From Candidatus Anderseniibacteriota bacterium (lineage in GTDB: Bacteria; Patescibacteriota; Andersenbacteria; UBA10190): a stretch of 49,836 nucleotides of DNA. The notes below the pieces were generated by a model. That model saw only the letters and a program-made list of their open reading frames with translations, was not told the origin of the DNA and ran no database searches. The stretch is taken from positions 1-49,836 of the forward strand of contig DATDYZ010000063.1 of assembly GCA_035288905.1 (NCBI GenBank), read 5' to 3'. Positions 9,981 through 32,359 of the stretch are shown in pieces. How positions within the stretch are numbered: the first letter of the stretch is position 1; every line of letters starts with the position of its first letter. Position numbers and translations under genes: made by a program.

Positions 9981-10000
9981 CAAACACCAGAAACGTTTTG
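9981..10000 (-). repeat. Copy of the 5'-proximal motif CAAAACGTTTCTGGTGTTTG, upstream of suhB
   Basis: Near-identical to 30188..30206 (+). Related to 22521..22536 (-). Confidence 0.7.
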
Positions 10001-10013
10001 AATAACTTTTGGC

Positions 10014-18347: not shown

Positions 18348-18386
18348 AAACTTGAAGTTAGAGTATTATGATTTCAGTATATACCT

Positions 18387-18845: not shown

Positions 18846-18886
18846 GGCTTACGAAAGGTGAGGATCTGTTTTGCGTAGAAAGTTTT

Positions 18887-19247: not shown

Positions 19248-19323
19248 ATTTTGTCTTTGGTTATCTACCCATACCGTACAGTAATTTGAACAATTGTTGT
19301 ATGGTGTTTATGCACAATTCTTT

Positions 19324-19465: not shown

Positions 19466-19500
19466 TGGTAGTCGTCAAATAAGAAAGTTCGCCCTTCAGC

Positions 19501-19528
19501 TTGACGGTTAAGCTCCAATAGGTATATT
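19501..19528 (+). promoter_or_regulatory. Promoter TTGACG-N16-TATATT
   Basis: Hexamers at 19501-06 and 19523-28, about 55 nt upstream of the AGGGAG-led ATG at 19584. Confidence 0.5.
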
Positions 19529-19583
19529 CAGTAAGCTGTACCGTTACAACTAAATACACATATTGCATCTAAGGGAGCTTTTT

Positions 19584-20081
19584 ATGACTTGGCAAGAATT
19601 AGCGGACCTATTGAACACTTCATCTGGATACCAATGGCTGAGAATTGGCTTTTGCCCAGAGGTAGGATTGCCATGGATGGTGTACGAACGAGGGGAAGTA
19701 ATGGGTGTTACCCTGCACGAAAACCTGTTTTGTCTCAAACTTGCTTGGCAGGCGCAATTCGTTCCGTTTGTCGGTAAGTGGATTTGGACCTATCCGCCCA
19801 ATGAAAATGGCCAACCTGCACAAATTTTTGATGGTAATATTACCGACATATCGCCATTCGAAGACCCAGCTGGTTTCATCCAGATCGGCAAAACTGTCTG
19901 GCACGGCGAACTCACCCAACACGAGATGAATCCCTGCGGGGTAGAAGGTGGTAAGCTCATTACTCATACCGAAATGGAATACAACAGGATCGAAGGAGGT
20001 TTATGGATTCTTCCGCCTAAGTACAAAGGCTTTGAGTTTCCCATGGACCAGATTTGCAGTTCGGAAGACATTCCTCGGTAG
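19584..20081 (+). CDS. Hypothetical protein (165 aa)
   Basis: ATG 8 nt after AAGGGAG. The ORF-track start at 19563 is a TTG. A terminator follows. Confidence 0.7.
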   Translation: MTWQELADLLNTSSGYQWLRIGFCPEVGLPWMVYERGEVMGVTLHENLFCLKLAWQAQFVPFVGKWIWTYPPNENGQPAQIFDGNITDISPFEDPAGFIQIGKTVWHGELTQHEMNPCGVEGGKLITHTEMEYNRIEGGLWILPPKYKGFEFPMDQICSSEDIPR

Positions 20082-20104
20082 CCTCCGACATTCAGCAAAA
20101 TCAC

Positions 20105-20134
20105 AAACCCAGTCGCATGGCTGGGTTTTTATTT
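20105..20134 (+). terminator. Rho-independent terminator (hairpin usable on both strands)
   Basis: AACCCAG-TCGCATGG-CTGGGTT followed by TTTTATTT. Confidence 0.7.
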
Positions 20135-20150
20135 ACTTAAAATTTAGCAA

Positions 20151-20181
20151 ACGCCAGAAACCGTGGGAGAAGTAAGAACCT
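20151..20181 (-). repeat. Fused copy of the 3' motif and the 5' motif: AGGTTCTTACTTCTCCCACGGTTTCTGGCGT (minus strand)
   Basis: Read directly from the sequence. Lies after the terminator of 20275..20673. Confidence 0.7.
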
Positions 20182-20199
20182 GTTTTATATATTTTGAGT

Positions 20200-20239
20200 A
20201 AAAGAAAACCGCCTCTGTTTCCGAAGAAACATTAGCGGG
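20200..20239 (-). terminator. Terminator of 20275..20673
   Basis: Minus strand reads CCGC-UAAU-GUUUC-UUCG-GAAAC-AGAG-GCGG followed by TTTTCTTTT. Confidence 0.5.
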
Positions 20240-20274
20240 TTGCGAACGATAATACATTAACTAGTTTCCAAAAA

Positions 20275-20673
20275 TCATTTCATAACTACGACTTTGATCA
20301 TCCATGAGTAGGTGCTCGAAGTGTTTTTCTGTTGAAGCTCTTCGATAATACGCGTTTGCATCGCAGGAGTCAGCACAGCTGCTTCTTCCAGTGATTTGTT
20401 GTCTGGGTTCAGCATCTGCGCGGCAAGGGTTGCTGGGTTAGTCATCTCGTTGCCACATATGTGCAAGATCGTTTTAAGGAGATTGGAAATTCCGGTTATC
20501 GCCTCTGCTTTGCTTGGCAGAACCGGTTCGCTGGACAACAACATTTTGAAGTTGTGACCAGGACCACGAGTAATGAGAATGGCCCATTTTCCTGTGCGTT
20601 CGCCAACCGTAAACTCCAAGTCATTAGGGTTCGTGAAAATCTCAAGTGCAGTCCCGCGTGTGATACCAGGCAT
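20275..20673 (-). CDS. Hypothetical protein (132 aa)
   Basis: Clean ORF in a G+C-richer patch, with a terminator downstream. Confidence 0.65.
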   Translation of the reverse strand: MPGITRGTALEIFTNPNDLEFTVGERTGKWAILITRGPGHNFKMLLSSEPVLPSKAEAITGISNLLKTILHICGNEMTNPATLAAQMLNPDNKSLEEAAVLTPAMQTRIIEELQQKNTSSTYSWMIKVVVMK

Positions 20674-20858
20674 GACTACCTTCTTTCTTTAGAGTGCAAG
20701 CTGAAACAGTGAAACAACCGAACTGAGCTATTATCTATACTCCATTGTCTAGGATTTGTACATTACAACAGTAACTTGAAATATTAGGATAGTTGTGATA
20801 GTCTCGATTGTTCTGGATATGACTGTACCTGTTCCAATGTATTGAAAGGAAAATCGAA

Positions 20859-21662
20859 ATGGTGATGCCCATTGATCTTGTACTGGTTAGGCACGGGGAA
20901 AGCGAAGGGAATGTTGCGAAAATACGATCCAAGGCAGGAGACAATAGTGCATTCGCAACAGAATTTTCGAGGCGCCTCGGATCACAATGGCGTTTGACTC
21001 AGCGTGGTGCTGAGCAAGCATCCAAGGCAGGAGATTGGATTCGTGAAAACATCTCACTAGTTTTTGATAAGTACTATGTTTCTGAATATACGCGAGCCAA
21101 AGAAACTGCTGGGTTGCTCAATTTACTGGAAGCAGAATGGTTTCCTAGCTTTTATTTGCGGGAGCGTGAATGGGGTGAAATGGACGTTACTTCTGAAAGA
21201 GAAAAGCAAGATCGGTTTGCAGACTCGCTGAGGCGTCGCGAAAGTGATGGATTTTTCTGGATTCCACCGAATGGCGAATCTCTTGCGCAGCTATGTTTGC
21301 GAATTGATCGAGTTCTCGATACGTTGCAACGGGAATGCAGCGATAAGAGAGTTATTGCGGTGTGCCATGGAGAAGTAATGTGGGCATTTCGCGTACAGCT
21401 CGAACGAATGTCGCAACAACGATTTCGAGAATTGGATATCTCCAAGCGTCCGTACGACAAGATTCATAACTGTCAGATCCTGCACTACACAAGGAGGAAT
21501 CCTGAAAATTGCAAAATCACTCCTTACTATATGTGGATGCGCTCGGTATGTCCCAGTGACACGAGTTTATCCTCAAATATTTGGATGCCCATTGAACGTC
21601 CACGATTTTCCAACGAAGATTTGCTCGAAGAAGTGGAGCTGACCCCAAGAATTATTTCTTAA
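20859..21662 (+). CDS. Histidine phosphatase (phosphoglycerate mutase-like) family protein
   Basis: LVLVRHGESEGN (RHG motif), later CHGEV. AAAGGA RBS. Confidence 0.88.
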   Translation: MVMPIDLVLVRHGESEGNVAKIRSKAGDNSAFATEFSRRLGSQWRLTQRGAEQASKAGDWIRENISLVFDKYYVSEYTRAKETAGLLNLLEAEWFPSFYLREREWGEMDVTSEREKQDRFADSLRRRESDGFFWIPPNGESLAQLCLRIDRVLDTLQRECSDKRVIAVCHGEVMWAFRVQLERMSQQRFRELDISKRPYDKIHNCQILHYTRRNPENCKITPYYMWMRSVCPSDTSLSSNIWMPIERPRFSNEDLLEEVELTPRIIS

Positions 21663-21691
21663 AGAAAGGGTCTACTCGAAGCATCTTACCA

Positions 21692-21716
21692 AACCTCCCC
21701 CAAAGGAGGTTTTTTC
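21692..21716 (+). terminator. Rho-independent terminator
   Basis: CCTCC-CCCAAA-GGAGG followed by TTTTTT. Confidence 0.65.
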
Positions 21717-21735
21717 ATTTAAAAAATACCAGCTT

Positions 21736-21744
21736 AGTTCTTAG
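21736..21744 (+). repeat. Degenerate copy of the 3' motif (AGTTCTTAG)
   Basis: About 19 nt after the terminator T-run, the same spacing as copy 29275. Confidence 0.35.
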
Positions 21745-21820
21745 ATGAATGTTAAAGCCGGGCTTTAACAATGTTTCAACTGTGTGGATCGGTTAACGGA
21801 AATTTGCTTTCTAAAGTAGT

Positions 21821-21837
21821 GGAGGAAGTAAGAACCC
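21821..21837 (-). repeat. 3' motif copy GGGTTCTTACTTCCTCC (minus strand), 8 nt after the stop of 21846..22490
   Basis: Read directly from the sequence. Confidence 0.75.
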
Positions 21838-21845
21838 GCGTCATT

Positions 21846-22490
21846 TTAAACCGTCGGCAATTCCTCGCTAAGCCTGCGAACTACAGCTTCGTAAAGCTCC
21901 GCAGCTTTAGAGGCAATATCGTGATCCGTTACATATGTTTCTGTTTGAGTTATGAGGCGTTTTTCTGTATCGCTATCAATACCAAGTGCTCGCCAAAAGA
22001 TAGCGTATGATTCAAGCGAAAGGTTATCTGTAGACTTGTACATGTCCACAAAAAGATTATTGTATTTTTTTATGAGGGTTTCATCTTCGCCATTTGGAGT
22101 AAATGCTTGATCGAGGTAGGGTAAGACTGAACGAACATCGAAAGACTTTGCATCAGCCATATCTTGAATAATTTTTATAGCAGTGCGACGCACCCATACG
22201 TCACTTCCTTGTCCTTCCACACCTTCACATACTTTGGGTAATGCTTCTTTTGTAGCTTTGTATTGGATGTCATCGGTAAGTAAATGAACCAACCATCCTT
22301 TATAGAAATCGCTCTTTTTAAACATCGGGTCTTTTCTATAGTCTTCTGGGTGGGTAAGAAATCTATCGATTTTTGTTATATATCTACTGTCAGGGTAAAT
22401 AGATCCACAGACGTATGCGCCACGATCAGTAATCGAAAGTTTATCCTGCACTGCGAGTGCAATTCGTACATGTGACGCTTCAAGAGCCAT
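21846..22490 (-). CDS. Zinc-dependent phospholipase C-like family protein (tentative)
   Basis: H..IA....L.......GSIYPDSRY....R..TH pattern and WLVHLLTDD. TAAAGT lies 6 nt upstream of the ATG. Confidence 0.7.
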   Translation of the reverse strand: MALEASHVRIALAVQDKLSITDRGAYVCGSIYPDSRYITKIDRFLTHPEDYRKDPMFKKSDFYKGWLVHLLTDDIQYKATKEALPKVCEGVEGQGSDVWVRRTAIKIIQDMADAKSFDVRSVLPYLDQAFTPNGEDETLIKKYNNLFVDMYKSTDNLSLESYAIFWRALGIDSDTEKRLITQTETYVTDHDIASKAAELYEAVVRRLSEELPTV

Positions 22491-22520
22491 GTAAAAACTT
22501 TAGCACGAGCATAAAGAAAT

Positions 22521-22536
22521 GCCAGAAACATTTTGT
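22521..22536 (-). repeat. 5'-proximal motif copy ACAAAATGTTTCTGGC
   Basis: About 30-45 nt upstream of the ATG at 22490. Confidence 0.55.
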
Positions 22537-22549
22537 ATTACGAATACCG

Positions 22550-23179
22550 TTATTCTTCGCGCCAAATAACGGTTGCTGTTTCGACGCTTCTAGAACCTTT
22601 CTTCTCACTCGTTAGCCAACGTCTATATGAGCTAAGCGTGTGGTCTTCAAACGTACATCGTTCGTCACGAAATATACTTTTTTCCGACACGCCCCATACA
22701 TCAAAGTACGTTTGAACTGCCTTTGAGAGTGAAAGATGTATTGTGTCTTTTTCTTTCACGGCTTCTGGAAATAACTTTTTAAACGTGGTGATTTCTTCTC
22801 CCTCATGGTTAAATGTGAAATGCTTTGAACAAATAGAGGGTCCTATAAACACACGTGTTATTTCATGCGGAGCAACAATGCGAGAAGCTTTCTCTAGTAA
22901 TCCATTTATGAGACTTTTACGACTTACATGCAACACCAGCCCTTTTTTGGGGGATAGTATAACAAGTGGCATACAATCAGCAGTACCTACTCCAACTTTT
23001 ACATGTGCTTGCGAAACTTCTATTCCATCAGCAACCGTCTCTCCAGATATACAAATTGTTGCGGAAGTTATTTCTCCTCCATGCAGGAGGCGCGGAAAAA
23101 TAACATTCTCGTTTAAAAAATCATCTTTTTTGCCAATAGCTATTCGCCAATTACCAAGTTTTCTGACCTGTATGCTCAT
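22550..23179 (-). CDS. Polyphenol oxidase/laccase-domain family protein (YfiH/PgeF, DUF152), divergent
   Basis: GTADCMPLVIL and C-terminal CTFEDHTLSSYRR match the family. The usual HAGWRG reads HVSRKS. Confidence 0.8.
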   Translation of the reverse strand: MSIQVRKLGNWRIAIGKKDDFLNENVIFPRLLHGGEITSATICISGETVADGIEVSQAHVKVGVGTADCMPLVILSPKKGLVLHVSRKSLINGLLEKASRIVAPHEITRVFIGPSICSKHFTFNHEGEEITTFKKLFPEAVKEKDTIHLSLSKAVQTYFDVWGVSEKSIFRDERCTFEDHTLSSYRRWLTSEKKGSRSVETATVIWREE

Positions 23180-23225
23180 TTCTACAACAGTACATCCCTC
23201 GCACCCTAGAGTTCAATGAAATTTT

Positions 23226-23263
23226 TCAAGAAAAGAAGCCGCATGGTAATACCATACGGCTTC
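23226..23263 (-). terminator. Terminator of 23297..23674
   Basis: Minus strand reads GAAGCCGTATGG-TATT-ACCATGCGGCTTC followed by TTTTCTT. Confidence 0.7.
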
Positions 23264-23296
23264 GAGATAGCTACGGATAGCAAACGGTTTCTTGCG

Positions 23297-23674
23297 CTAT
23301 AAAAGCGTAAAGTTCAGACTTCCACTATATCGAATCCGGAGCTTTCGCTCGTCGTCTCGGAACCATGGCACCATAAGTACGATCTCGTTACAATTGTTGC
23401 TGGCCAGTGCATTCCGGATAGATGTCAGGAAGTTTGCCTGCGTGGGCGTTGGAAAATTCGCAAAACGAGATAGCATTTCCACGTCGTCGAAGAAAACGTC
23501 TCCTCTGCCATCAGCTGCCGGAATTCGGTATGGAGGCTTGATGGTCGATTTGCCACGAAAGGTTTCTGTGGCATTTGCCAATGTTTCTATACACGACAAC
23601 AGTTGTCGCGACCAGAATTGGTTCCAGAAATCATCCAAATCAATTTCCAATACGGGGCTAGTGGATGAACTCAT
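23297..23674 (-). CDS. Hypothetical protein (125 aa)
   Basis: The internal ATG at 23674 has an AAGGAG RBS 8 nt upstream. The upstream part of the 272-aa ORF is low quality and overlaps the divergent gene. Confidence 0.65.
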   Translation of the reverse strand: MSSSTSPVLEIDLDDFWNQFWSRQLLSCIETLANATETFRGKSTIKPPYRIPAADGRGDVFFDDVEMLSRFANFPTPTQANFLTSIRNALASNNCNEIVLMVPWFRDDERKLRIRYSGSLNFTLL

Positions 23675-23885
23675 GTTCAAAACTCCTTGTGTTGTGATTG
23701 AACTAAACGTACCATATGGGATAATAGTATATAAGTATGGTATCGTCAAGGGCGGTGTGTAATGTGCACACACATACGGCAGTTTTAGCAGTGGAAGCAA
23801 GGGCCTATTGCAAATTCCAATAGTAGCTGTTATTTTGTGATATTGGTTTGTTTCTCTTGCACACTTTAGACCTAGGAGATTAGGA

Positions 23886-24383
23886 ATGGCCGGAAAAGAT
23901 GTAATGCAATTGGAGTATGCGGCAGAATATGCCCTGAAAGTTGCGGGTCCTAGCATTCTGGAAGCGATAAGGTTCCCTTTTGAAAAAAGTCGCGTTGCAG
24001 CACATGTTGTAATTCTTGACCCAAGAATACCTTTTGAAAAGAGAGGGAGTTTGCCGATATTGGCTGAGCAAACATTTGGAGAGCAAGACTCTTTGAAATG
24101 GACATCAAACTTCAAAGCAATTGCTCACTCAAAAGCAATTATTTGTTGGCGTACGGGGCTCAGTACTCGTGCAGTTGGGGAAAAGGCTCCGTTTCTTTAT
24201 GAGCATGGCGACACGAAATATTCTGGTGGCGTTGTATGCGACGGCTTGATTGTTGCAGTAAGCGGGATGAATTGGGAATTGGATGAAGCATGTGCTCATA
24301 TGGTCATTGCATTCTTCTGGGCCCATGTTCGTCATGGTCGAGACCTGATTATGCAAAATCGAGATCAGGGTTTTTTCGAATGA
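23886..24383 (+). CDS. GlcG/HbpS-like (DUF336) protein
   Basis: YSGGVVCDGLIVAVSGMNWELDEACAHM resembles GG.pi..dG.viGaiGvSG....D. AGGAGA RBS. Confidence 0.7.
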   Translation: MAGKDVMQLEYAAEYALKVAGPSILEAIRFPFEKSRVAAHVVILDPRIPFEKRGSLPILAEQTFGEQDSLKWTSNFKAIAHSKAIICWRTGLSTRAVGEKAPFLYEHGDTKYSGGVVCDGLIVAVSGMNWELDEACAHMVIAFFWAHVRHGRDLIMQNRDQGFFE

Positions 24384-24410
24384 TGACATTGGCCATTTCA
24401 TCGAACCTTT

Positions 24411-24452
24411 AACCGCAAGCTTCGCAAGAAGTCCCTGCGGTTTTTATTTTTT
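24411..24452 (+). terminator. Rho-independent terminator
   Basis: ACCGCA...TGCGGT with an inner CTTC-GCAA-GAAG hairpin, followed by TTTTTATTTTTTT. Confidence 0.65.
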
Positions 24453-24514
24453 TAAGAAGCTTTAAAAACATTTTGTCATAGACGCCGAATTGCTTTATCG
24501 GGTAAGGTAAATAA

Positions 24515-25534
24515 ATGGGAGAACGAGAGCCTAGACCAGAACAAGCTGAAAACAAATCTTCTGATTACCAACAGTACCTGGAGTCAAGGCACGCTGGCTT
24601 TGAAATTCCAACAGAGAAATTGGAAGCTGTTGTCGAAGAAGCAACGTCGAGTAGGCCAGTTTCTGTAGAAAGAATCACTTCGGGTGAGGTAAATGAAGTA
24701 TACGATGTTACTCTGCCTGCTGATCAGCACGTTATTGTGCGAATTTCTCGCAACAAAGATTCTGAATTTGGACGTGAGGTTTGGGCTATTGAACAGGCAA
24801 AAGATGTAGGTGTGCCCGTGCCTGAAATGCTGTTGGTAACAAAAGTTACGGTAGAGAACTCGGATCCTTTGCGGGTTTGTGTACAAAATAAACTCGCAGG
24901 AGAGCCTCTTGAGCGAGGCAGGATTGATTACGGCAAGATTGAACCTGCACTATTACGCTCCTATATGCGACAAGCAGGTGAAATACTGTCGAAAATACAT
25001 TCTATTCCCGTAACTGGTTTTGGATCCCTGAACGAGCAAGGGCGAGGCTCGGTATCGATGTTTCAGTCTCTTATGTCGCGCAATATTGAGCAACGAGATA
25101 GTTTTGAAGAAATTGGAAGAAGGCGAGGTATGGATATGAACGTTATTGACCGTGTGTTTACTCTCTTGCAAGAAAATGTAGCATCAGCTCAAGAATTTCA
25201 GCCAGTGCTTACTCATGGTGATTTTGGTCCGAAGCATATGATGGTTGAAGGTAATAAAATGACGGGAATTATTGATTGGGGCGGAGTTTCAGGACATTCC
25301 CCGGTACATGACTTTGCTGGATTTATACTTTGGTATCCCGAGCTACCCTTTGATGCGCTTCAAGAGGGGTATGCCGACAAAGAGCTTTTTGATAATGATT
25401 TTGAGAAAAAGCTTCAATGGATTGCGCTCGATAATGCATTGGGCGCGCTTGAATGGTATGACAAGAATAACTTTGAGGCGGGGATACAATACTTGATAGA
25501 TAAAATGCGAGAGATTTTACATTTTTCGCGTTAG
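24515..25534 (+). CDS. Aminoglycoside/choline-kinase type phosphotransferase (APH family)
   Basis: LTHGDFGPKHMMVEG...GIIDWG catalytic/Mg loop. N-lobe VNEVYDV...VIVRI. Confidence 0.88.
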   Translation: MGEREPRPEQAENKSSDYQQYLESRHAGFEIPTEKLEAVVEEATSSRPVSVERITSGEVNEVYDVTLPADQHVIVRISRNKDSEFGREVWAIEQAKDVGVPVPEMLLVTKVTVENSDPLRVCVQNKLAGEPLERGRIDYGKIEPALLRSYMRQAGEILSKIHSIPVTGFGSLNEQGRGSVSMFQSLMSRNIEQRDSFEEIGRRRGMDMNVIDRVFTLLQENVASAQEFQPVLTHGDFGPKHMMVEGNKMTGIIDWGGVSGHSPVHDFAGFILWYPELPFDALQEGYADKELFDNDFEKKLQWIALDNALGALEWYDKNNFEAGIQYLIDKMREILHFSR

Positions 25535-25551
25535 GTGAAAAAGTTTCTTAT

Positions 25552-25568
25552 AGAGGAAGTAAGAACCT
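25552..25568 (-). repeat. 3' motif copy AGGTTCTTACTTCCTCT (minus strand), 5 nt after the stop of 25574..26137; pairs with an inverted partial copy at 25540-25554
   Basis: Occupies most of the 39-nt gap between the convergent stops at 25534 and 25574. Confidence 0.75.
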
Positions 25569-25573
25569 ATTTC

Positions 25574-26137
25574 CTATAACCTGCTTACCCATCGGTGCTC
25601 CGGCTGCGCTTTTTTAATTGCGTTTTTCAGCCATTGTTTTGATTCCGATAAAAGATGGCCGATAACATTTTCAAAATCTTGATCATCTTTCGGTCGTGTT
25701 TCTTTTGTTTTGTAGAGCAGTGATATTTCCGGGGGCCAGTAGGGAATCGTATCTCTATATTGTATGAGCTGTTCTTTTGGATATGAAATGGAATCGTCTC
25801 GTCTGTACAGCCAATGCGTTTCATTCGAATTGTTCAAAAGAATTTCTATTGTCGCATCATCTTTTACCGCTTTTATTTCATGCACGGGAGGTTGTAAAAA
25901 CTCATCTTCGTTCCATTCACTCATCTCACTATTAATTATTTTCAATAGTCGCCAATCATGAAGATACTTTCTAAGCGCTTGTTGGTCTTCACGGAAAATA
26001 CCAATGTCTATATCAGTGTGCTCCCGAGTAATTTGCGCAAGGAATAAATCAATTGCCCAACCGCCACAAATAAACCAGGGTTTTTTGAAGTCTTGCATTA
26101 CGTCGGTTATATGTTTCAGTTGCGAGGGTATTTTCAT
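25574..26137 (-). CDS. Nucleotidyltransferase, ANT(2'')-like (aminoglycoside adenylyltransferase family fold)
   Basis: WFICGGWAIDLF....HTDIDIGIF motif. Confidence 0.8.
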   Translation of the reverse strand: MKIPSQLKHITDVMQDFKKPWFICGGWAIDLFLAQITREHTDIDIGIFREDQQALRKYLHDWRLLKIINSEMSEWNEDEFLQPPVHEIKAVKDDATIEILLNNSNETHWLYRRDDSISYPKEQLIQYRDTIPYWPPEISLLYKTKETRPKDDQDFENVIGHLLSESKQWLKNAIKKAQPEHRWVSRL

Positions 26138-26233
26138 GTTGTTTTTATACTAGCATGGATAGAAACCAAAAATGTTTTGCTGTTTGCAGTAGATAAAGCC
26201 TGCTTGTTGTTAGCCAGGTGAGAATCCGTTTCA

Positions 26234-26899
26234 TTAATGCAGTGTGCTGCCTACGAGAATGCCGTTTGCAAAGTAAAATCCGGTTTCTCCCGATGGTAAA
26301 ATGTCGTAAGTATATCCATCGTCATACGAAATACGATCGGCAGAAATTACCCGGGAGCCATCATACTCATCTCCTACGGCAAGGTTACCGACTGTGCGCC
26401 CATCTATTGTCGGATGCCCGGGAGAGACTATGAGAATACGTCCGTCTTCTACCATGAACTTTACCATTTTATGATCTGATGGCACCGCTACCTTGCTGAC
26501 CTGAGAGATTTTTTCTACAACGCGCGTGCCGGAGGAAGTGACGGTCCAGATGGGCGCGCCTTTTTGCAAATCTTCTACTGCTACGGCACCTTGTGGCGTA
26601 TCAATTAACGTGTGTTTCGCAAGGCAAATGGGGCAGTTTTGAACATACCCTTTGGGCTGGCAGAAATACTTTGGAGGAGTGTCATCGGGGTATTGCAAGA
26701 CTGGTGGGCCGCACGTTTGCATACATGCAAAATTTGAAGGACAGTCGGTATCTTTCGTACATACAGATGCTTCCGGCGATGGCGGGATATTTTCTATTTC
26801 TTCTGTAAACATCCGATCTTCTGCTTTTACAAGTATCCATACTATACCTATAGCAACAATGATTACTGCAATACTCATGAGCGGTAGAATACTTTTCAT
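26234..26899 (-). CDS. Membrane-anchored Cys-rich protein with a C-terminal Hint (bacterial intein-like) domain
   Basis: TM anchor, then C-rich linker ...NCPIC|LAKHTLIDTPQGAVAVEDLQKG...VSPGHPT...YDIL...FYFANGILVGSTLH. TATAAT lies 8 nt upstream of the ATG. Confidence 0.8.
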   Translation of the reverse strand: MKSILPLMSIAVIIVAIGIVWILVKAEDRMFTEEIENIPPSPEASVCTKDTDCPSNFACMQTCGPPVLQYPDDTPPKYFCQPKGYVQNCPICLAKHTLIDTPQGAVAVEDLQKGAPIWTVTSSGTRVVEKISQVSKVAVPSDHKMVKFMVEDGRILIVSPGHPTIDGRTVGNLAVGDEYDGSRVISADRISYDDGYTYDILPSGETGFYFANGILVGSTLH

Positions 26900-27009
26900 T
26901 GCTCTCTATTATACACGAGCTCAGTAACCGTCGTTCTCTTATTGCAAAACAAGCCGTTTTCCGTACTATAGAGATAGCCATGAACCTTTAAGTGGTACAT
27001 GAGCAATAA

Positions 27010-27049
27010 TCCCTGGTAGCTCTCCGCCAGCTGGCGGAGGTAGAGCAGT
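27010..27049 (+). repeat. Truncated tRNA-Asn 5' copy 1 with a 16-nt palindrome in the D-loop
   Basis: TCCCTGGTAGCTC[TCCGCCAGCTGGCGGA]GGTAGAGCAGT, versus TCCCTGGTAGCTCAGTGGTAGAGCAGT in the tRNA. Confidence 0.85.
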
Positions 27050-27063
27050 TTCTTTTAAAATCG

Positions 27064-27324
27064 ATGCGTATGCAACATTACGTTTATGCGATCTATAACC
27101 CAGATCATTTGAAGGTTTACATAGGAGAAACTAATGATCCAGAAGAAAGGTTAAAGGCTCACAATGAACACCGATTTACAACAAGTTATACCGCTCGTTT
27201 TAGCGGTTTGTGGAAACTTATTTATATCGAAAAATGTTCAGACCGTCGAGAAGCTCGCAAAAGAGAAAAGCAACTCAAAAGTTATCAAGGTCGACAATTT
27301 ATTAAAAAACACATTCCCTGGTAG
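27064..27324 (+). CDS. GIY-YIG nuclease family protein (YhbQ/UPF0213-like, 86 aa)
   Basis: YVYAIYN...KVYIGETNDPEERLKAHN...REKQLK. The last five codons lie in tRNA-like copy 2. Confidence 0.85.
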   Translation: MRMQHYVYAIYNPDHLKVYIGETNDPEERLKAHNEHRFTTSYTARFSGLWKLIYIEKCSDRREARKREKQLKSYQGRQFIKKHIPW

Positions 27325-27369
27325 CTCTCCGTACTCCGCCAGTTGGCGGATGACGGAGGTAGAGCAAGT
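27315..27369 (+). repeat. Truncated tRNA-Asn 5' copy 2 with a 30-nt nested palindrome in the D-loop
   Basis: TCCCTGGTAGCTC[TCCGTACTCCGCCAGTTGGCGGATGACGGA]GGTAGAGCAAGT. Confidence 0.85.
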
Positions 27370-27393
27370 AATATTAGAAAGTAGACAACATAT

Positions 27394-27468
27394 TCCCTGG
27401 TAGCTCAGTGGTAGAGCAGTGCCCTGTTAAGGCAATGGTCGTAGGTTCGAATCCTACCCGGGGAGCCA
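27394..27468 (+). tRNA. tRNA-Asn (anticodon GTT), CCA encoded
   Basis: Hand-folded: acceptor TCCCTGG/CCGGGGA, D arm GCTC/GAGC, anticodon loop CTGTTAA, T arm GTAGG-TTCGAAT-CCTAC, discriminator G, CCA. Confidence 0.92.
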
Positions 27469-27486
27469 TGAAGCAGAGATTTGATA

Positions 27487-27514
27487 AAGACTCGCCAAAA
27501 GCGAGTCTTTCTTG
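27487..27514 (+). terminator. Terminator after the tRNA
   Basis: AGACTCGC-CAAAA-GCGAGTCT followed by TTCTT. Confidence 0.6.
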
Positions 27515-27564
27515 TGGCATGCTTGCCACATCAAATCACGCTTCATGGCGAACCCTGTAGTCAC

Positions 27565-27593
27565 GCGAAGCGTCTACTACTGTGGTCTGGTGT
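27565..27593 (+). repeat. Direct repeat A: GCGAAGCGTCTACTACTGTGGTCTGGTGT
   Basis: Matches 32252..32279 with 1 mismatch and 1 indel. Its 3' 20 nt (27574-27593) is identical to 29369-29388, and the match extends 2 nt further, to 27595/29390. Confidence 0.85.
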
Positions 27594-27623
27594 TTCTTTG
27601 AGGATATATCATATACTCAAACT

Positions 27624-28271
27624 ATGATAAAAGACTCCGCGAAAACGATACTCTGTTACGGTGACTCGAATACCTGGGGAAGTGTGCCAAGAAGCAGTGA
27701 ACGATATCCCTACAGTATTCGATGGACTAGCATACTGCAATATATGCTCGGCGATGAGTATGAGGTGATTGTTAATGGAGTATGCGGAAGAACCCTTGTT
27801 GCCAGTAATCCTGAGAAGCCTTGGCTCTGTGGGATTACACACCTACAAGCCATTCTTGAAAGCGCAAAACCAGTATCTCTTATCATAATTATGCTTGGTA
27901 CGAATGATGTAAAAAGTACGTATAGCCTAAGCGCTGAAGATATTCAAAAGCACTTAGAACAAACAGTGCTTCTAATTCAGGAAAATCAAATAAATCTTGA
28001 AGCGATCCCTAAGGTTCTCGTCGTCTGCCCCGCACCCGTTATCACTCCTGCAATAAACGATTTAGACGAACAAATGGTGCGAGGATTAGATATATTCCCC
28101 CAACTTCCAAAGGCATATAAAGAAACTGCGGATAGGTATGGCTGTGAATTTTTGAATGCTGGTGACTCTATTCAATCAAGCAGCATAGATGGATATCACC
28201 TTAATGCCGAAGCACATGAAAAACTTGCAGAAATAATCAGTACTGCTATTAAAAAACTTCCTCTTACCTGA
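27624..28271 (+). CDS. SGNH/GDSL hydrolase family protein
   Basis: ILCYGDSNTWG (block I), MLGTNDV (block III), DGYH (block V). TATACT lies 6 nt upstream of the ATG. The ORF-track GTG at 27582 lies inside repeat A. Confidence 0.9.
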   Translation: MIKDSAKTILCYGDSNTWGSVPRSSERYPYSIRWTSILQYMLGDEYEVIVNGVCGRTLVASNPEKPWLCGITHLQAILESAKPVSLIIIMLGTNDVKSTYSLSAEDIQKHLEQTVLLIQENQINLEAIPKVLVVCPAPVITPAINDLDEQMVRGLDIFPQLPKAYKETADRYGCEFLNAGDSIQSSSIDGYHLNAEAHEKLAEIISTAIKKLPLT

Positions 28272-28272
28272 T

Positions 28273-28554
28273 ATGCAGAACAAAAAGCTTGAAACTGTGG
28301 TACTGCGCAACCGCGTTTATGAACATTATCGCGGCAATCGATATCTCGTTGTTGATATTGCAAAAGATGCTGACAAAGATGGGGATGAGTTTCTCGTCAT
28401 GTATAGAGCACTCTATGATCACGGACAGCTGTATGCGACAACGCTTGAACGGTTTACAGGAGTAAATAACGAGGGCCAACCGCGATTTCGTTTACTTACA
28501 ATCGAAGAAGAAAACAGAAACCCAACACACACGTATCCAACAATTACAATGTAA
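28273..28554 (+). CDS. DUF1653 domain protein
   Basis: VYEHYRGNRYLVVDIAKD....LVMYRALYDHGQLYATTLERF. Confidence 0.8.
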   Translation: MQNKKLETVVLRNRVYEHYRGNRYLVVDIAKDADKDGDEFLVMYRALYDHGQLYATTLERFTGVNNEGQPRFRLLTIEEENRNPTHTYPTITM

Positions 28555-28595
28555 CAACTTTAGAGCTTGATAGATATAACAGGTGAAGCAAGTTA

Positions 28596-28623
28596 TTGAC
28601 AAAAAACATATAATGCGTATATT
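28596..28623 (+). promoter_or_regulatory. Promoter TTGACA-N16-TATATT
   Basis: Hexamers at 28596-601 and 28618-623. Followed by CTACTGGTCTG (a weak copy of the repeat core) and an AGGGGA RBS. Confidence 0.5.
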
Positions 28624-28686
28624 TACTAGTCCGCTACTGGTCTGATCATTACTTTAAAAACACCGTATCTCTTTTAGGGGACTCTC

Positions 28687-29211
28687 ATGATTCATGCAGA
28701 AGTTGCAGAAGTTTTGGAAGCAAAACGACTTGAACTTGTGCGAGATCTAGCAGAATGGGCACAAGAAGCAGGAATATCTCCCGCTGATTTCAAGCTTGTA
28801 GTGAACGTTTCACTGGAACTTGTACCCCATACAAGCGTTGAAGCAAAACTTAGCTTGACGACGAGTATCAAGGAAGAATTCTTTAGTCGAGGCCGTATCA
28901 TTATATTGCAGAGAAAACTCACGGAGGGAGAACTTGAATGCATAAGAAACATACCCTGGAGTATTCATCACAGAGTAATAGCCGACTTTCTTCTGGAACA
29001 AGGAAACGAAGAAACTTCCAGCAAAACAATTAATCAAAAGTTGGCCGACGCGGGGTACGATGCCGTTGAAGCAGATATCTATTATATCTACACTCGTCTT
29101 AATGCCAAGCTTGTCCGCCATGCACATCATCTTCGGTTTACCTACTCGATGGACGGAAAGGCAAGAGGGGGTCCGTATAGATTCTTTGCAGCATTAGAGA
29201 GCGATAAATAG
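28687..29211 (+). CDS. Hypothetical protein (174 aa); C-terminal half resembles 12371..12946
   Basis: Clean ORF with an RBS. See the paralog note at 12371..12946. Confidence 0.7.
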   Translation: MIHAEVAEVLEAKRLELVRDLAEWAQEAGISPADFKLVVNVSLELVPHTSVEAKLSLTTSIKEEFFSRGRIIILQRKLTEGELECIRNIPWSIHHRVIADFLLEQGNEETSSKTINQKLADAGYDAVEADIYYIYTRLNAKLVRHAHHLRFTYSMDGKARGGPYRFFAALESDK

Positions 29212-29274
29212 TTCACAATCCGCCAGCTCATATTTATGGGTAGGCGGTTTTCTTTTACCTAAAATATTGGAAAC

Positions 29275-29289
29275 AGGTTCTTAGCTGCC
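29275..29289 (+). repeat. 3' motif copy AGGTTCTTAGCTGCC
   Basis: 19 nt after the T-run that follows 28687..29211. Confidence 0.65.
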
Positions 29290-29368
29290 TACCGGCAGGC
29301 AGGCTTCATCCACTACGGGGCGAACTCCTGAAGTATTACCCTGAACCGTGCTTGCTCTGGTTCGGGGG

Positions 29369-29390
29369 CTACTACTGTGGTCTGGTGTTT
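29369..29390 (+). repeat. Direct repeat B: CTACTACTGTGGTCTGGTGTTT
   Basis: Identical core to repeat A. Preceded by the hairpin CCCTGAACC...GGTTCGGGG. Confidence 0.8.
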
Positions 29391-29458
29391 GTGTGTAGAT
29401 AGGCTACATTAAAAGGTGGTTTAAACAGATTGCTATTTTAAAAAACAAGGGAAAAGTT

Positions 29459-30100
29459 ATGAAAACAGCCATACTGACTGGCTTCGAGAAGTTTGGAAGC
29501 TACGCAGTCAATCCCACAAAAACACTTACTCAAGACTTGAATGGAAGGATATTGGCCGAGCATAGAATCCATTCGATGGTCTTTTCCGCGGCACCAAGTC
29601 AACTCAAGGATTGCGGAAAGGAGATTGTTGAACAATTATTATCGGTACATGCTTCCGTTATTATTTCTTTTGGAATGGCATCTGAAGCGAAAGGCGTGCG
29701 GGTTGAAATGCGATGCGTGAATTGGGTAGAAAACGACAGGTACTGTATGCCTTTTGAAAATCGTACGCCAATTTTCAGCGATATACCTATTCATGACGTG
29801 AGGTGTGTTCCTCTTGAACAATGGGATCTGAAAGCGGCGTCTTTTCGCCTGTCGGCTATGGGCATGAGTTTTGAAACTTCGCAAGATGCAGGAAGGTTTT
29901 GCTGCAACGCGCTGATGTTCAGAGTATTACGGGCACTTGAGGAAAAGTCTCAAACGATTCCGTTTCTGTTTGTCCATATCCCGTGCACGGAAGAAGCTAT
30001 TGCAACAATTTCTGACTTTGATCGTGCTCAGAAAACATTAATTCAGCAAAGCGATCTTCCCGCGGTAGTTGAAAGTCTCCTGAAGTCGTATCATCAATAA
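29459..30100 (+). CDS. pcp: Pyroglutamyl-peptidase I (peptidase C15)
   Basis: MKTAILTGFEKFGSYAVNPT, DAGRFCCNALMF (catalytic Cys), FVHIP (His). Confidence 0.9.
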   Translation: MKTAILTGFEKFGSYAVNPTKTLTQDLNGRILAEHRIHSMVFSAAPSQLKDCGKEIVEQLLSVHASVIISFGMASEAKGVRVEMRCVNWVENDRYCMPFENRTPIFSDIPIHDVRCVPLEQWDLKAASFRLSAMGMSFETSQDAGRFCCNALMFRVLRALEEKSQTIPFLFVHIPCTEEAIATISDFDRAQKTLIQQSDLPAVVESLLKSYHQ

Positions 30101-30187
30101 AAAAGATAGCAGTTGCGTTCACATCCCGCATAGTAGGGTGTTTTTATTTTGCATAGCCATGTGCTCACCTTACCTACTGCGGGAGAT

Positions 30188-30206
30188 AAAACGTTTCTGG
30201 TGTTTG
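30188..30206 (+). repeat. 5'-proximal motif AAAACGTTTCTGGTGTTTG
   Basis: 21 nt upstream of the NUDIX ATG. Near-identical to the suhB upstream copy. Confidence 0.7.
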
Positions 30207-30226
30207 TTTTATGCTATGATTTTTAT

Positions 30227-30628
30227 ATGAAATTCATCGACAAGGTAGCATGGATACAAATTGAAAATGGAAAAATTCTCTTGGCTCGCTCTAGGGGAAA
30301 AGATGTTTGGTATATACCAGGGGGAAAAAGGGAAGCCAGAGAATCTGACAAAGAAACACTCATGCGAGAAGTCAAAGAAGAACTTACCGTTGATCTCATT
30401 CCTGAAACTATTGCGTACTTGCACACATTCAAGGCGCAGGCTCATGGAAAACCCGAAGGCGTATTTGTCCAAATGACTTGCTATACCGCCGACTATATTG
30501 GAGAGCTTGTTCCAGCCGCAGAAATTGAAGAAATGGGATGGTTTGCTTCAGATGTAGATCCTGCGTTGCTTTCGCCGGTAGATAAAATTATCTTTGCATA
30601 CTTAAAGGAACGCGAACTGATTAACTAG
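30227..30628 (+). CDS. NUDIX hydrolase
   Basis: Nudix box GGKREARESDKETLMREVKEELTV. TATGAT lies 6 nt upstream of the ATG at 30227. Confidence 0.9.
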   Translation: MKFIDKVAWIQIENGKILLARSRGKDVWYIPGGKREARESDKETLMREVKEELTVDLIPETIAYLHTFKAQAHGKPEGVFVQMTCYTADYIGELVPAAEIEEMGWFASDVDPALLSPVDKIIFAYLKERELIN

Positions 30629-30634
30629 CTAAAT

Positions 30635-30653
30635 AGGTTCTTATTTCATCCAC
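30635..30653 (+). repeat. 3' motif copy AGGTTCTTATTTCATCCAC, 6 nt after the NUDIX stop
   Basis: Read directly from the sequence. Confidence 0.7.
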
Positions 30654-30681
30654 CGCCGGGAGCAACACGAGGATTTTAAAT

Positions 30682-30716
30682 GGGAAAAAATAAAAAAACC
30701 AGCTTTTGGCTGGTTG
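30682..30716 (-). terminator. Terminator of the GNAT gene
   Basis: Minus strand reads AACCAGC-CAAAA-GCTGGTT followed by TTTTTTATTTTTT. Confidence 0.7.
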
Positions 30717-30746
30717 GGTTGTTGAGGTTTGATGTATGGCTTTGTC

Positions 30747-32251: not shown

Positions 32252-32279
32252 GCGAAGCGTCTACTACTGTTGCTGGTGT
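32252..32279 (+). repeat. Direct repeat C: GCGAAGCGTCTACTACTGTTGCTGGTGT
   Basis: See repeat A. Preceded by CCATGAAGCG, which also spans the tRNA 3' end (27466-27474). Confidence 0.85.
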
Positions 32280-32359
32280 AAACTATTCCCTTGAATAACT
32301 ATCTGTAATACTGAATACTTTTATATATATGAAATGAGGGATGGGTATATACTTAGATT

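Follow-up and report, generated by a model that had tools for sequence, protein, structure and literature searches.

A ~59-nt element at the junctions of accessory-gene arrays in Candidatus Andersenbacteria, a candidate cassette-joining site

Element copies between accessory genes of the window

The window, i.e. the entire 49,836-nucleotide stretch of contig DATDYZ010000063.1 that was analysed, belongs to a Candidatus Andersenbacteria genome, is ~90% coding and contains, besides ~35 kb of core genes, an island of accessory genes in which a (-) and a (+) cassette series diverge from a mid-island tRNA-Asn(GTT) gene (27394..27468, (+)). The initial annotation described five copies of a short motif 3′ of unrelated genes, and all five are present at the positions and on the strands given there and are intergenic. 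Four copies of AGGTTCTTAYTTCMTCC occupy these positions compared with 0.13 expected by chance and, with ≤3 mismatches allowed, the 17-mer has four matches in the window, a number reached in 0 of 100 shuffles. GGTTCTTA occurs six times in the window against 1.4 expected; its copy at 12432, the only one inside a gene, is probably a chance match. The copy at 29275 exists and is the full motif interrupted rather than a short variant, consisting of AGGTTCTTA, a 20-nt hairpin insertion (29284-29303) and CTTCATCCACTACGGGGCGAAC.

The motif is conserved as proposed, but the conserved stretch is longer than first described: it continues through ...CCAC-TAC-GGGGAGCAA, and full copies reach GTTTCTGR..TTTCTGGTGTTTG. 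Specifically, the short motif is box A (AYAGGTTCTTACTTCCTCCAC), the first third of a ~59-nt element that continues with box B (TGCGGGGAGCAAAA) and box C (TGTTTCTGAGGTTTCTGGTGTTTG). The far end of the repeated unit, TCTGGTGTTTG, which had been missed, lies just 5′ of the promoter of the next gene. At least seven further degenerate or partial copies are present in the window, and none lies in the ~35 kb of core genes. The element contains three direct TTCT-type repeats, its invariant positions are those of primary sequence, and it lacks the dyad symmetry expected of a serine- or tyrosine-recombinase core site.

On the (-) strand, E1 (20147..20181) has box A (20163-20181, AGGTTCTTACTTCTCCCAC) fused to box C (20147-20162, GGTTTCTGGCGTTTGC) with box B deleted; it lies 3′ of the terminator of a 132-aa gene (20275-20673) and has no co-oriented gene downstream. 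Its box A is preceded by the 3′ half of the terminator, the T-run and an A-rich spacer (20182..20214, (-), AGGCGGTTTTCTTTTACTCAAAATATATAAAAC), which are homologous to 29242-29274 (inverted repeat I1, 42 nt, 88%), bearing out the likeness of terminator and TTTTACYYAAAATAT spacer noted earlier for these two places. E2 (21797..21837, (-); nhmmer, 12.4 bits) begins with box A (21819-21837) 8 nt past the stop codon of a 214-aa gene and continues with diverged boxes B and C. Head-to-head with E2 lies TAGTTCTTAG (21735..21744, (+)); the previously listed match AGTTCTTAG at 21736(+) exists and reads as a truncated box A in opposite orientation, behind the terminator of the convergent His-phosphatase gene. 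E3 (22516..22534, (-)) is box C alone (AAAATGTTTCTGGCATTTC); an extended -10 (TGCTAAAGT) lies downstream of it, 6 nt before the ATG with which the 214-aa gene starts, and the orthologues in the related genomes L182 and L194 share this conserved promoter region. E4 (25535..25568, (-)) has box A (25550-25568) 5 nt past the stop codon of the ANT-like gene, followed by degenerate B/C remnants that run as far as the stop of the convergent APH gene; together with an oppositely oriented box A remnant 6 nt past the APH stop codon (25541..25550, (+), AAGTTTCTTA), it forms a local palindrome. The convergent junctions of the window contain head-to-head remnants of two elements. E5 (26157..26227, (-); 10.3 bits), between a Hint-domain gene and the ANT-like gene, comprises the first half of box A (26218-26227), a 20-nt insertion (26198-26217), the second half of box A with box B (26174-26197) and box C (26157-26173).

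On the (+) strand, the degenerate E6 (27541..27596, CTTCATGGCGAAC...CTACTACTGTGGTCTGGTGTTTC) lies 5′ of a putatively leaderless GDSL lipase gene. The internally deleted E7 (28579..28601) has ACAGGT joined to GAAGCAA, then a TTGACA-type promoter; the DUF1653 orthologue in L182 has a full box A-B behind it. E8 (29275..29391) is the interrupted copy, with the first half of box A at 29275-29283 and, after the insertion, which is homologous to that of E5, the second half with box B (29304-29325), an extra hairpin segment and box C (29369-29391). E9 (30161..30206, GTGCTCACCTTACCTACTGCGGGAGATAAAACGTTTCTGGTGTTTG; 14.3 bits) has degenerate boxes A-B and a good box C, followed by the -10 TATGAT and the presumed leaderless start of the NUDIX gene at 30227. 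E10 (30635..30666, boxes A-B, AGGTTCTTATTTCATCCACCGCCGGGAGCAAC; 20.7 bits, E=5e-5) lies 6 nt past the NUDIX stop codon, and the next gene is convergent. E11 (32252..32283, (+), GCGAAGCGTCTACTACTGTTGCTGGTGTAAAC), a degenerate copy of the E6 subtype, is 5′ of an amidohydrolase gene. Outside the main island, E12 (9981..10010, (-), AAAAGTTATTC joined to AAAACGTTTCTGGTGTTTG) precedes a probably leaderless inositol-monophosphatase gene of a family that is also found in the array of L183.

Arrays and gene linkage in related genomes

In the related genomes L182 and L194, the element recurs in one orientation, 10 times within 7 kb and at least 13 times within 10 kb, respectively, with approximately one copy per intergenic gap between small, unrelated genes. 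A profile built from seven L182 copies alone recovered, at E<0.01, the copies in the window as well as in L061, L092, L117, L033 and L034. The copies are strictly co-oriented, at ~1 per junction, in the arrays of L182, L194 and L117, and one Saccharimonadales genome and two further metagenomic lineages have shorter versions of the element. Arrays with the same types of genes contain only degenerate copies in L183, and no copies were detected in those of L184 and L196. The region downstream of lexA-dinB is different in every relative examined.

Three genes of the window (the 214-aa gene, the ANT-like gene and DUF1653) have orthologues in L182 with 61-86% amino-acid identity. In both genomes, box A lies 1-28 nt past their stop codons, and the 214-aa orthologue in L194 likewise keeps box A past its stop codon; the downstream neighbours of the three genes differ in every case. 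These observations, together with the placement of the motif at junctions of unrelated single accessory genes and the regular one-per-junction arrays in relatives, favor the cassette boundary among the roles initially considered for the motif. By contrast, the rule that the motif always has the polarity of the upstream gene describes the five window copies but is not general: copies without a co-oriented upstream gene are present in L182 (6873 and 11395), L061, L033 and L194 (9486 and 12448). Where the element borders a gene in opposite orientation (six junctions), the consensus match continues to the last position of box C (TCTGGYGTTTG) and goes no further, and the inverted gene at L182 9397-9909 has TCTGGTGTTTG as an 11-nt direct repeat on both flanks.

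Cassette promoters, tRNA-Asn and a recombinase gene

TANNNT lies 5-8 nt 5′ of the start codon in 22 of 25 cassette genes, against a background of 6%, and Shine-Dalgarno sequences are missing from all 25. Because each gene has its own -10 box ~6 nt 5′ of the ATG and a Shine-Dalgarno sequence is absent, these sequences suggest leaderless transcripts. In the four upstream sequences that were read, the gap between box C and the -10 varies from 8 to 16 nt, which argues against box C as a fixed -35 or activator site. As judged from the sequences, each cassette brings its own promoter.

The 3′ half of tRNA-Asn resembles boxes A-B. The two align in the forward orientation only (p = 0.000-0.02; reverse orientation not significant), with a modest similarity that needs five gap positions, and a tRNA covariance model failed to report any copy, even with the cutoff at E<=10. 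The sequence of strain L186 matches the window at 99.8% identity as far as the tRNA-Asn 3′ end and differs beyond it; at the divergence point, a gene for a large serine recombinase, represented by its C-terminal 174 residues, reads into tRNA-Asn. In L094, a full 493-aa recombinase homologue ends in the identical 30-nt tRNA-Asn 3′ block. The description of the locus as lacking a recombinase therefore applies to the window but not to this near-identical strain, in which such a gene abuts the mid-island tRNA-Asn; no recombinase gene was found in the window or adjoining the L182 and L194 arrays. On the recombinase side of the L186 junction, nothing is significantly similar to box C. Of note, the only strain difference found is at tRNA-Asn itself and not at a motif copy, and no excised circles or empty sites were observed, nor any presence/absence polymorphism of cassettes that has its breakpoints within the element.

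Interpretation and known systems

In Candidatus Andersenbacteria, and in some other bacteria of the CPR, the element, with the motif as its box A, separates unrelated accessory genes one by one in an integron-like layout. Our best reading is that this inter-cassette junction element is most likely an att-like cassette-joining site, a reading to which we give about an even chance. In this model, a cassette would open with a short, variable leader, after which come an extended -10 promoter of its own (~6 nt 5′ of the ATG, giving a leaderless mRNA), the gene itself, in some cases a terminator with an A-rich spacer, and the A-B-C element. Cassettes would be joined, exchanged and inverted at the element, which would take the role of an integron attC at the 3′ end of each cassette. 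Boxes A-B may descend from the 3′ half of tRNA-Asn, which in sister strains would be the integration site of an element with a large serine recombinase; both recombination at the element and the enzyme responsible are what we infer from these patterns, and homologous recombination between repeated promoter-proximal modules could give the same ones.

It is also conceivable, although clearly less probable, that many accessory genes acquired A-B-C as an upstream operator (or UP-type region) copied together with promoters, to form a co-regulated set, e.g. as sites for one transcription factor that recognizes the three TTCT-type repeats; on this view, tight intergenic spacing, combined with the need of every leaderless gene for a promoter, would produce the cassette order incidentally. 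The element usually lies 80-170 nt 5′ of a co-oriented, apparently leaderless gene with box C nearest the -10, A-B-only variants have a TTGACA -35 directly after box B (L182 6873 and 11395; L194 7016, 7828 and 12059), and the motif is found ~45-60 nt before start codons in L092, L029, L034 and L051. Invariant positions in primary sequence are also what a protein-binding site would have, and homologous promoters before unrelated genes are a described phenomenon (PMC3575422). However, the spacing of box C to the -10 is not fixed, orthologous genes keep the element 3′ of them even when the next gene differs, and complete elements have no co-oriented gene downstream in the window (20163, 21819, 25550 and 30635), L182 (5721, 9339 and 10531), L194 (8822 and 10654) and L117 (6141). 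Moreover, the similarity extends over spacer positions and the insertions shared by E5 and E8, which argues for common descent rather than selection for binding. A selfish, non-autonomous MITE- or REP-like repeat spreading into gene-end and intergenic positions, with the genes between copies incidental, would account for the many clustered copies, their degenerate and truncated members, the subfamilies with a common 20-nt insertion, and the related sequences in four lineages with flanking genes of no detectable similarity; REP elements also favor gene 3′ ends. We regard this as improbable because terminal inverted repeats, consistent target duplications and palindromic hairpins are absent, none of the loci showed a RAYT or IS200-type transposase, the L182, L194 and L117 arrays have strictly co-oriented copies at ~1 per junction, the core genes of the window have none, and a copy is at the same place by orthologous genes in three genomes.

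Two further explanations are less probable still. An RNA element in the 3′-UTR of the upstream gene (a terminator, stabilizer or anti-Shine-Dalgarno sponge) is suggested by box A starting 0-10 nt past the stop codon in the window (21819, 25550 and 30635), L182 (5721, 8620 and 10531), L194 (6145, 7016, 9919 and 10654) and 4 of 4 cases in L117, and by the potential pairing of CTTCCTCC with GGGGAG, single copies folding at -6 to -12 kcal/mol. Yet we found no conserved hairpin and no stable or covarying fold across copies: most copies gain nothing in folding energy over shuffled sequences, pairing of the candidate helix reaches 68.8% of cells (67.3% in shuffles), and shifting the helix by +2 improves on this. 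Real terminators, where present, lie upstream of the motif, and some copies have no co-oriented upstream gene, making such an element very unlikely; the sponge, i.e. the Shine-Dalgarno-sequestering RNA of the initial annotation, was not supported because the cassette genes have no Shine-Dalgarno sequence. Its proposal of divergent small transcripts starting here also lacks support, given that no Rfam family matched and no structure or conserved downstream transcript was found. Least probable of all, and by our estimate highly so, is a classical integron cassette array (CALIN) with the element as attC for an IntI tyrosine recombinase encoded elsewhere. It would fit the single conserved repeat per small, unrelated gene, the co-oriented arrays and a gene content (NUDIX, GNAT, glyoxalase, toxin and cupin) that resembles that of chromosomal integrons, as known from Vibrio superintegrons, but there is no R″/R′ inverted core pair (RYYYAAC/GTTRRRY) and no conserved imperfect hairpin, cassettes have their own promoters, no intI-like gene adjoins any array, and a literature search turned up no such arrays from Patescibacteria.

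With the att-like junction as the preferred reading, the arrays share features with several known systems. REP/BIME and other intergenic repeats are likewise short and lie just past stop codons or between convergent genes, but the element has no palindrome or associated RAYT transposase, is strictly oriented within arrays and is confined to accessory-gene arrays. Putative mobile promoters are homologous upstream sequences before non-homologous genes within and between genomes (PMC3575422), as here. In our case, however, the -10 box and start region vary by cassette, the common part lies upstream at variable distance, and the element persists without a following gene and is inherited with the upstream gene.

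Prochlorococcus reportedly has hypervariable islands with direct repeats of tRNA 3′ ends, as Coleman and colleagues are said to have described in 2006. These islands also lie by a tRNA gene and have several partial copies resembling its 3′ end, read as scars of repeated site-specific integration; here, by contrast, the repeat is diverged, 5 nt longer, conserved across distant lineages, extended by the non-tRNA box C and present once per gene, also in arrays without a tRNA within reach. SCC and pseudo-SCC tandem arrays of staphylococci, at the 3′ end of rlmH (orfX), have integration-site repeats at their boundaries and owe their mobility to Ccr large serine recombinases. The likeness lies in serial accretion next to a conserved gene (at its 3′ end), units bounded by short target-derived direct repeats, many units without their own recombinase, and a large serine recombinase in some strains; the SCC units measure several kb or more while ours comprise one gene of 0.4-1.3 kb each, tRNA-Asn is the candidate target here, and recombinase action on the repeats is putative. 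Finally, integron attC sites are ~60-120 nt long. Our arrays differ from sedentary chromosomal integrons in a repeat conserved in sequence and not as an imperfect hairpin, without RYYYAAC/GTTRRRY cores, in the lack of an adjacent IntI integrase, in cassettes that are also inverted, and in a promoter and putative leaderless start for each cassette instead of a common Pc promoter, but they share with the Vibrio cholerae type one ~60-nt conserved repeat at the 3′ end of each small gene and long co-oriented arrays of NUDIX, acetyltransferase, glyoxalase and toxin genes.

A junction element of about 59 nt and its distribution

The motif described in the initial annotation is one third of a longer element of ~59 nt, full copies of which consist of AYAGGTTCTTACTTCCTCCAC (box A, the motif itself), TGCGGGGAGCAAAA (box B) and then TGTTTCTGAGGTTTCTGGTGTTTG (box C). 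At ≤3 mismatches, the motif AGGTTCTTACTTCCTCC occurs in four window copies (20165, 21821 and 25552 on the reverse strand and 30635 on the forward strand), where 0.13 would be expected by chance, and none of 100 dinucleotide-preserving shuffles of the window reached four copies. Its core, GGTTCTTA, is found six times in the window versus 1.4 expected; five of these matches are the sites first annotated, and the sixth, at 12432 inside a gene, is probably due to chance. The copy at 29275 is likewise present, but not as the short variant it had been taken for: it consists of AGGTTCTTA, a 20-nt hairpin insertion and CTTCATCCACTACGGGGCGAAC. All five annotated copies are intergenic even though ~90% of the window is coding, and the similarity reported ahead of two of them, comprising the 3' half of a terminator, the T-run and the A-rich spacer, holds over 42 nt (88%). 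Reading the intergenic regions of the window against the consensus added seven copies that are degenerate, deleted or interrupted, and the convergent junctions of the window contain two short, inverted remnants of box A. In two window copies, E5 (26157-26227) and E8 (29275-29391), box A is interrupted at the same point by homologous 20-nt insertions, which is evidence of common descent. Box C corresponds to a second repeat of the window, TCTGGTGTTTGT, with three exact copies and 13 matches at ≤2 mismatches against 4.9 expected.

Homologues of the genes for the ANT-like and 214-aa proteins led to two related Andersenbacteria loci with arrays, L182, in which 10 copies, all co-oriented, lie within 7 kb, and L194, from an 850-kb contig, with at least 13 copies in 10 kb. 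A search profile built solely from seven L182 copies matched the window at 30635 (E=5e-5) and 30164 at E<0.01 and more weakly at 21836, 26199, 9998, 25568, 20181 and 22535. Elsewhere, the same profile identified copies at E<0.01 in L061, L092, the Saccharimonadales locus L117 and the WNFI01 contigs L033 and L034, with weaker matches in L051 and L029. The four copies in L117 are co-oriented within 1.8 kb, and each lies 0-10 nt from a stop codon. Across 24 copies, T4, C6, T7, T11, T12 and A18 are invariant, and conservation is of the primary sequence. Scans of the whole collection, with the 18-mer in metagenome contigs and a box B pattern in genome contigs, gave matches that were mostly chance or coding; the genuine relatives among them were L061, the WNFI01 contigs and L117. 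Among loci of relatives, no copies were detected in L184 and L196; of the two fetched via DinB, L090 contained no copy, and the sole match in L089 was a box B-C upstream of an SRAP gene (18.1 bits).

Three further observations concern related regions. L183 (1-17398) and L184 (148-6292) contain 29 and 11 co-directional small accessory genes, respectively, with very short intergenic gaps and a content that includes four NUDIX proteins, GNAT, glyoxalase, a PemK toxin, cupin, methyltransferases and inositol monophosphatase; in L183, box A is kept only as degenerate remnants. These look like older or compacted arrays of the same kind. In L182, the 401 nt before the first cassette (4671-5071) hold three to four copies of GTGTCTCATTTG in both orientations as well as a canonical T-loop-like sequence, GGGTTCGAAACC, joined to box B-C; upstream lie a MarR/ArsR-type HTH gene and a divergent gene for a 173-aa protein of unknown function, and this region may be the head of the array. 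Finally, L007, L009, L010, L035, L056, L060, L062 and L079 share a conserved, apparently structured non-coding region of ~300 nt (for instance L010 4250-4620) that includes the 18-mer GGTTCTTACTTCATCCAC without mismatch, in most members with CA after it, amid variable hairpins. This region matches no Rfam family, and L056 has an A/V-type ATPase operon.

Make-up of the cassettes and their genomic setting

Of 25 genes that lie downstream of an element, 22 carry a TANNNT hexamer preceding the start codon by 5-8 nt, in most cases by exactly 6, against a background of 6%, and many of these hexamers are preceded by TGC, giving an extended -10. None of the 25 has a Shine-Dalgarno sequence. It is therefore probable that each of these genes has a promoter of its own and gives a leaderless mRNA. 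This promoter region varies between cassettes, yet it is kept among orthologous cassettes across genomes, as seen for the 214-aa gene (CGTGCTAAAGTTTTTACATG in the window, CATGCTAGAGTTTTTATATG in L182 and CGTGCTAAAGTTTTTATATG in L194), and the distance from the end of box C to the -10 box is variable (8-16 nt in four upstream sequences read by eye). On the other side of the gene, box A follows the stop codon of the 214-aa gene by 8 nt in both the window and L194 and by 1 nt in L182; for the ANT-like gene, the distance is 2 nt in L182 and 5 nt in the window. Behind the DUF1653 gene, L182 has a full box A-B and the window a copy with an internal deletion. The gene next after each orthologue differs between genomes, being convergent in three of three cases after the 214-aa gene. 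Where an opposite-strand gene comes next, the consensus match ends at the end of box C (six junctions), and an inverted gene in L182 (9397-9909) has an 11-nt direct repeat of the box C end on both sides. A unit therefore looks as follows: a short leader and a -10 box of its own precede the gene, behind which comes A-B-C, optionally after a terminator with spacer; the end of box C is the junction with the next unit.

By its DinB homologues, the window is assigned to the CPR/Patescibacteria lineage Candidatus Andersenbacteria. The motif region belongs to a stretch of ~16 kb (17.2-33.5 kb) of small accessory genes encoding RibD_C, DUF1761, DUF2975, histidine phosphatase, Cu-oxidase_4, APH, ANT-like nucleotidyltransferase, Hint-domain, GIY-YIG, GDSL lipase, DUF1653, pyroglutamyl peptidase, NUDIX, GNAT, M23 and amidohydrolase proteins. 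It is bordered by lexA-dinB on one side and, on the other, by core genes including a V-type ATPase operon and PBP1A, and tRNA-Asn lies in its middle (27394-27468). Because the sequence downstream of lexA-dinB is different in each relative fetched, the region is hypervariable. We also noted a CGAACATGTCGTAT-type palindrome resembling the Gram-positive SOS box in the window (15590-15640), in L092 (4203-4262) and in L089 (about 9600-9640). In the relatives, it lies where the lexA-like (Peptidase_S24)-dinB operon begins, and it probably serves these CPR bacteria as LexA operator. A gene for a PT-TG pre-toxin domain protein (38164-38889), which follows genes for DUF6498/DUF6789 membrane proteins, may represent a polymorphic toxin locus adjoining the V-ATPase operon. 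After copy E10, a 41-codon ORF on the forward strand (30674-30799; MGKNKKTSFWLVGLL...) with GAGGA as Shine-Dalgarno sequence 6 nt before the ATG shares sequence with the convergent GNAT gene, overlapping its 3' end and terminator; a small hydrophobic peptide may be its product, or it may be there by chance.

tRNA-Asn and a large serine recombinase

Boxes A and B resemble the 3' half of tRNA-Asn in the pattern AGGTTC....TCCT..AC.CGGGGAGC(C)A. In local alignments to this half, the forward orientation gave p=0.000-0.02 and the reverse was not significant; five gap positions were required, and between AGGTTC and CGGGGAGC the element exceeds the tRNA by 5 nt. Two of the L117 copies end in GGGAGCCA. 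Relative to tRNA-Asn, two forward-strand copies of the window lie downstream in direct orientation and three reverse-strand copies are inverted. The tRNA model reported none of the motif copies, and the reverse complement of the element was not significantly similar to a tRNA 5' half. The repeat at the junctions has the look of a diverged tRNA-Asn 3' end, and the island starts at that tRNA.

Strain comparison bears on the same site. A near-identical strain, L186, matches the window at 99.8% identity over 11845-27473, up to a few bases beyond the 3' end of tRNA-Asn, and diverges there. Its 507 differing nucleotides code for the 174 C-terminal residues of a large serine recombinase (L186 3-527), the last codons of which (LLPG, stop) are the reverse complement of the tRNA-Asn acceptor stem. 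A full-length homologue of 493 aa (L094 8733-10232), with Resolvase, Recombinase and Zn_ribbon_recom domains and 50% identity to L186 over the common part, is located downstream of dinB in the hypervariable region, and its gene ends in the identical 30-nt tRNA-Asn 3' block, isolated from any tRNA gene, which its last three codons and stop codon overlap in antisense. Thus, a serine-recombinase element uses the tRNA-Asn 3' end in this lineage. The L094 element further encodes an HTH_17 protein, a DNA methyltransferase and a ResIII helicase.

In attP half-sites of large serine recombinases, the outer motif, which is bound by the zinc ribbon, is about 5 bp more distant from the centre than it is in attB half-sites. 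The difference of 5 nt between element and tRNA fits this geometry but may be a coincidence. Several results argue against a direct role of this particular recombinase. No dyad symmetry was found around a central crossover dinucleotide, the halves of the 59-nt consensus not being inverted repeats (its TTCT-type repeats, three in number, are direct); box C does not resemble the recombinase-side arm (p=0.33), and its origin as a relic of the recombinase gene 3' end was not significant at the DNA level; no recombinase gene was found in the window or beside the L182 and L194 arrays; and none of the motif copies showed an excision or insertion polymorphism.

Fragments of tRNA-Asn also occur at 27009-27393, where a small GIY-YIG gene (27064-27324) lies between two direct copies of the tRNA-Asn 5' part (TCCCTGGTAGCTC...GTAGAGCA). 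A CCGCCAGYTGGCGG hairpin splits the D-loop of both copies; the tRNA-like repeat supplies the final codons of the gene (IPW, stop), and the real tRNA is next, at 27394. In L117, the copy at 5756 is interrupted by a similar hairpin, CCGCCAGCCGGCGG, and the first gene after the first motif copy likewise encodes a GIY-YIG protein.

Function of the element and comparison with known systems

Several candidate identities did not agree with the sequence. An opposite-strand mini-ORF (MxE[VI]RT...), an idea that came from a viral contig in which the 18-mer is coding (MNVDEVRT), has neither a Shine-Dalgarno sequence nor a promoter, its reading frames are not conserved, and the insertion at 29275 causes a frameshift. 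As read from the sequence, neither strand has the conserved second box of an ECF or sigma-54 promoter. A DNA uptake sequence is contradicted by the confinement of copies to the island, with none in ~35 kb of core genes, and a polar replication-related motif by the lack of a GC skew switch. A dif/pdif (Xer) site would have an 11-6-11 dyad, which was not found; ACTTCCT is only weakly similar to one arm of the Bacillus dif site.

Because the element sits at gene junctions, forms arrays in several CPR lineages and is inherited with the upstream gene, and because the cassettes carry their own leaderless promoters, no fold is conserved, and strain variation and a recombinase gene coincide at tRNA-Asn, we take it to be the joining site of a cassette system, a reading to which we give even chances. 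The main rival, a propagated regulatory module, we consider possible though rather unlikely: the element usually lies upstream of promoters, but its spacing to the promoter varies, complete copies occur with no gene behind them, and it is inherited with the upstream gene. A mobile or reused promoter disagrees with the cassette-specific -10 box and the variable distance from box C. A selfish repeat fits worse than either the joining site or the regulatory module and is improbable, since terminal inverted repeats are absent; for MITE/REP-type repeats in particular, there is also no palindrome and no transposase near the arrays, and the single 11-nt flanking repeat brackets an inverted gene rather than the element.

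An RNA element of the 3'-UTR also fits less well than the joining site or the regulatory module and is very improbable, as no fold is conserved and true terminators lie upstream. Specifically, single copies folded no better than shuffled sequences, and the sole plausible helix, CCTCY/RGRGG, was paired in 68.8% of cells against 67.3% in shuffles, a slid version being better. Rfam 15 gave no match at motif copies up to E=10, only tRNA-Asn reaching the gathering score. Given the lack of Rfam match and fold, a riboswitch (preQ1-type or other) or small RNA is out, and the motif has no conserved stem from which an intrinsic terminator or stabilizing hairpin could be formed. The anti-Shine-Dalgarno role suggested in the initial annotation was abandoned because the cassette genes have no Shine-Dalgarno sequence and, thus, offer no target. 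A classical attC site, again a poorer fit than joining site or regulatory module, is the reading we find hardest to credit. The inverted cores R'' (RYYYAAC) and R' (GTTRRRY) are lacking, box A beginning GTTCTTAC/GTTCTAAC and a complementary GTWAGAAC lying downstream in only three of ~30 copies (at 9, 23 and 85 nt); sequence is conserved rather than an imperfect hairpin, with no stable fold; and a tyrosine recombinase, the enzyme class to which the product of an adjacent intI would belong, was detected neither in the window nor in the sequence ahead of the L182 array nor within 20 kb surrounding the L194 array.

Extending the joining-site reading, our working model, which is tentative and which we hold to be rather unlikely in its full form, is integron-like gene capture of a new kind in some CPR bacteria by leaderless, self-promoted single-gene cassettes with tRNA-Asn-derived A-B-C ends and a recombinase acting in trans. 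Each cassette would end in a sequence-specific A-B-C site of ~59 nt descended from the tRNA-Asn 3' end, and the recombinase would insert, excise and invert cassettes at A-B-C. This enzyme may be the tRNA-Asn-targeting large serine recombinase of the sister strains or one not yet recognised, and its action would give rise to the arrays of accessory genes in such small genomes.

In CPR/Patescibacteria, whose genomes are very small, the ways in which accessory functions are gained and reshuffled are poorly understood. The arrays hold from 10 to nearly 30 unrelated genes of house-cleaning, detoxification and resistance type (NUDIX, GNAT, glyoxalase, aminoglycoside-modifying enzymes, toxins), and a conserved sequence at each junction, common to four lineages, points to a dedicated way of building them. 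If the element is a recombination site, it would be a second, structurally different answer to the problem that integrons solve, and demonstrating recombination at it would establish a new type of gene-capture system in CPR bacteria. If it is regulatory, it would define a large co-regulated set of accessory genes and, for uncultured bacteria, a promoter architecture of the leaderless type. In both cases, the 59-nt consensus offers a practical probe with which CPR metagenome bins can be searched for variable gene arrays.

We found no description of the A-B-C element in the literature searched. In layout, the arrays work like a chromosomal integron array, from which the element differs in its cores, hairpin and adjacent IntI, and like the staphylococcal SCC accretion region. 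Compared with the tRNA-fragment repeats known from genomic islands, the element goes further because it occurs once per gene, includes box C in addition and is conserved across lineages with no detectable similarity between their flanking genes.
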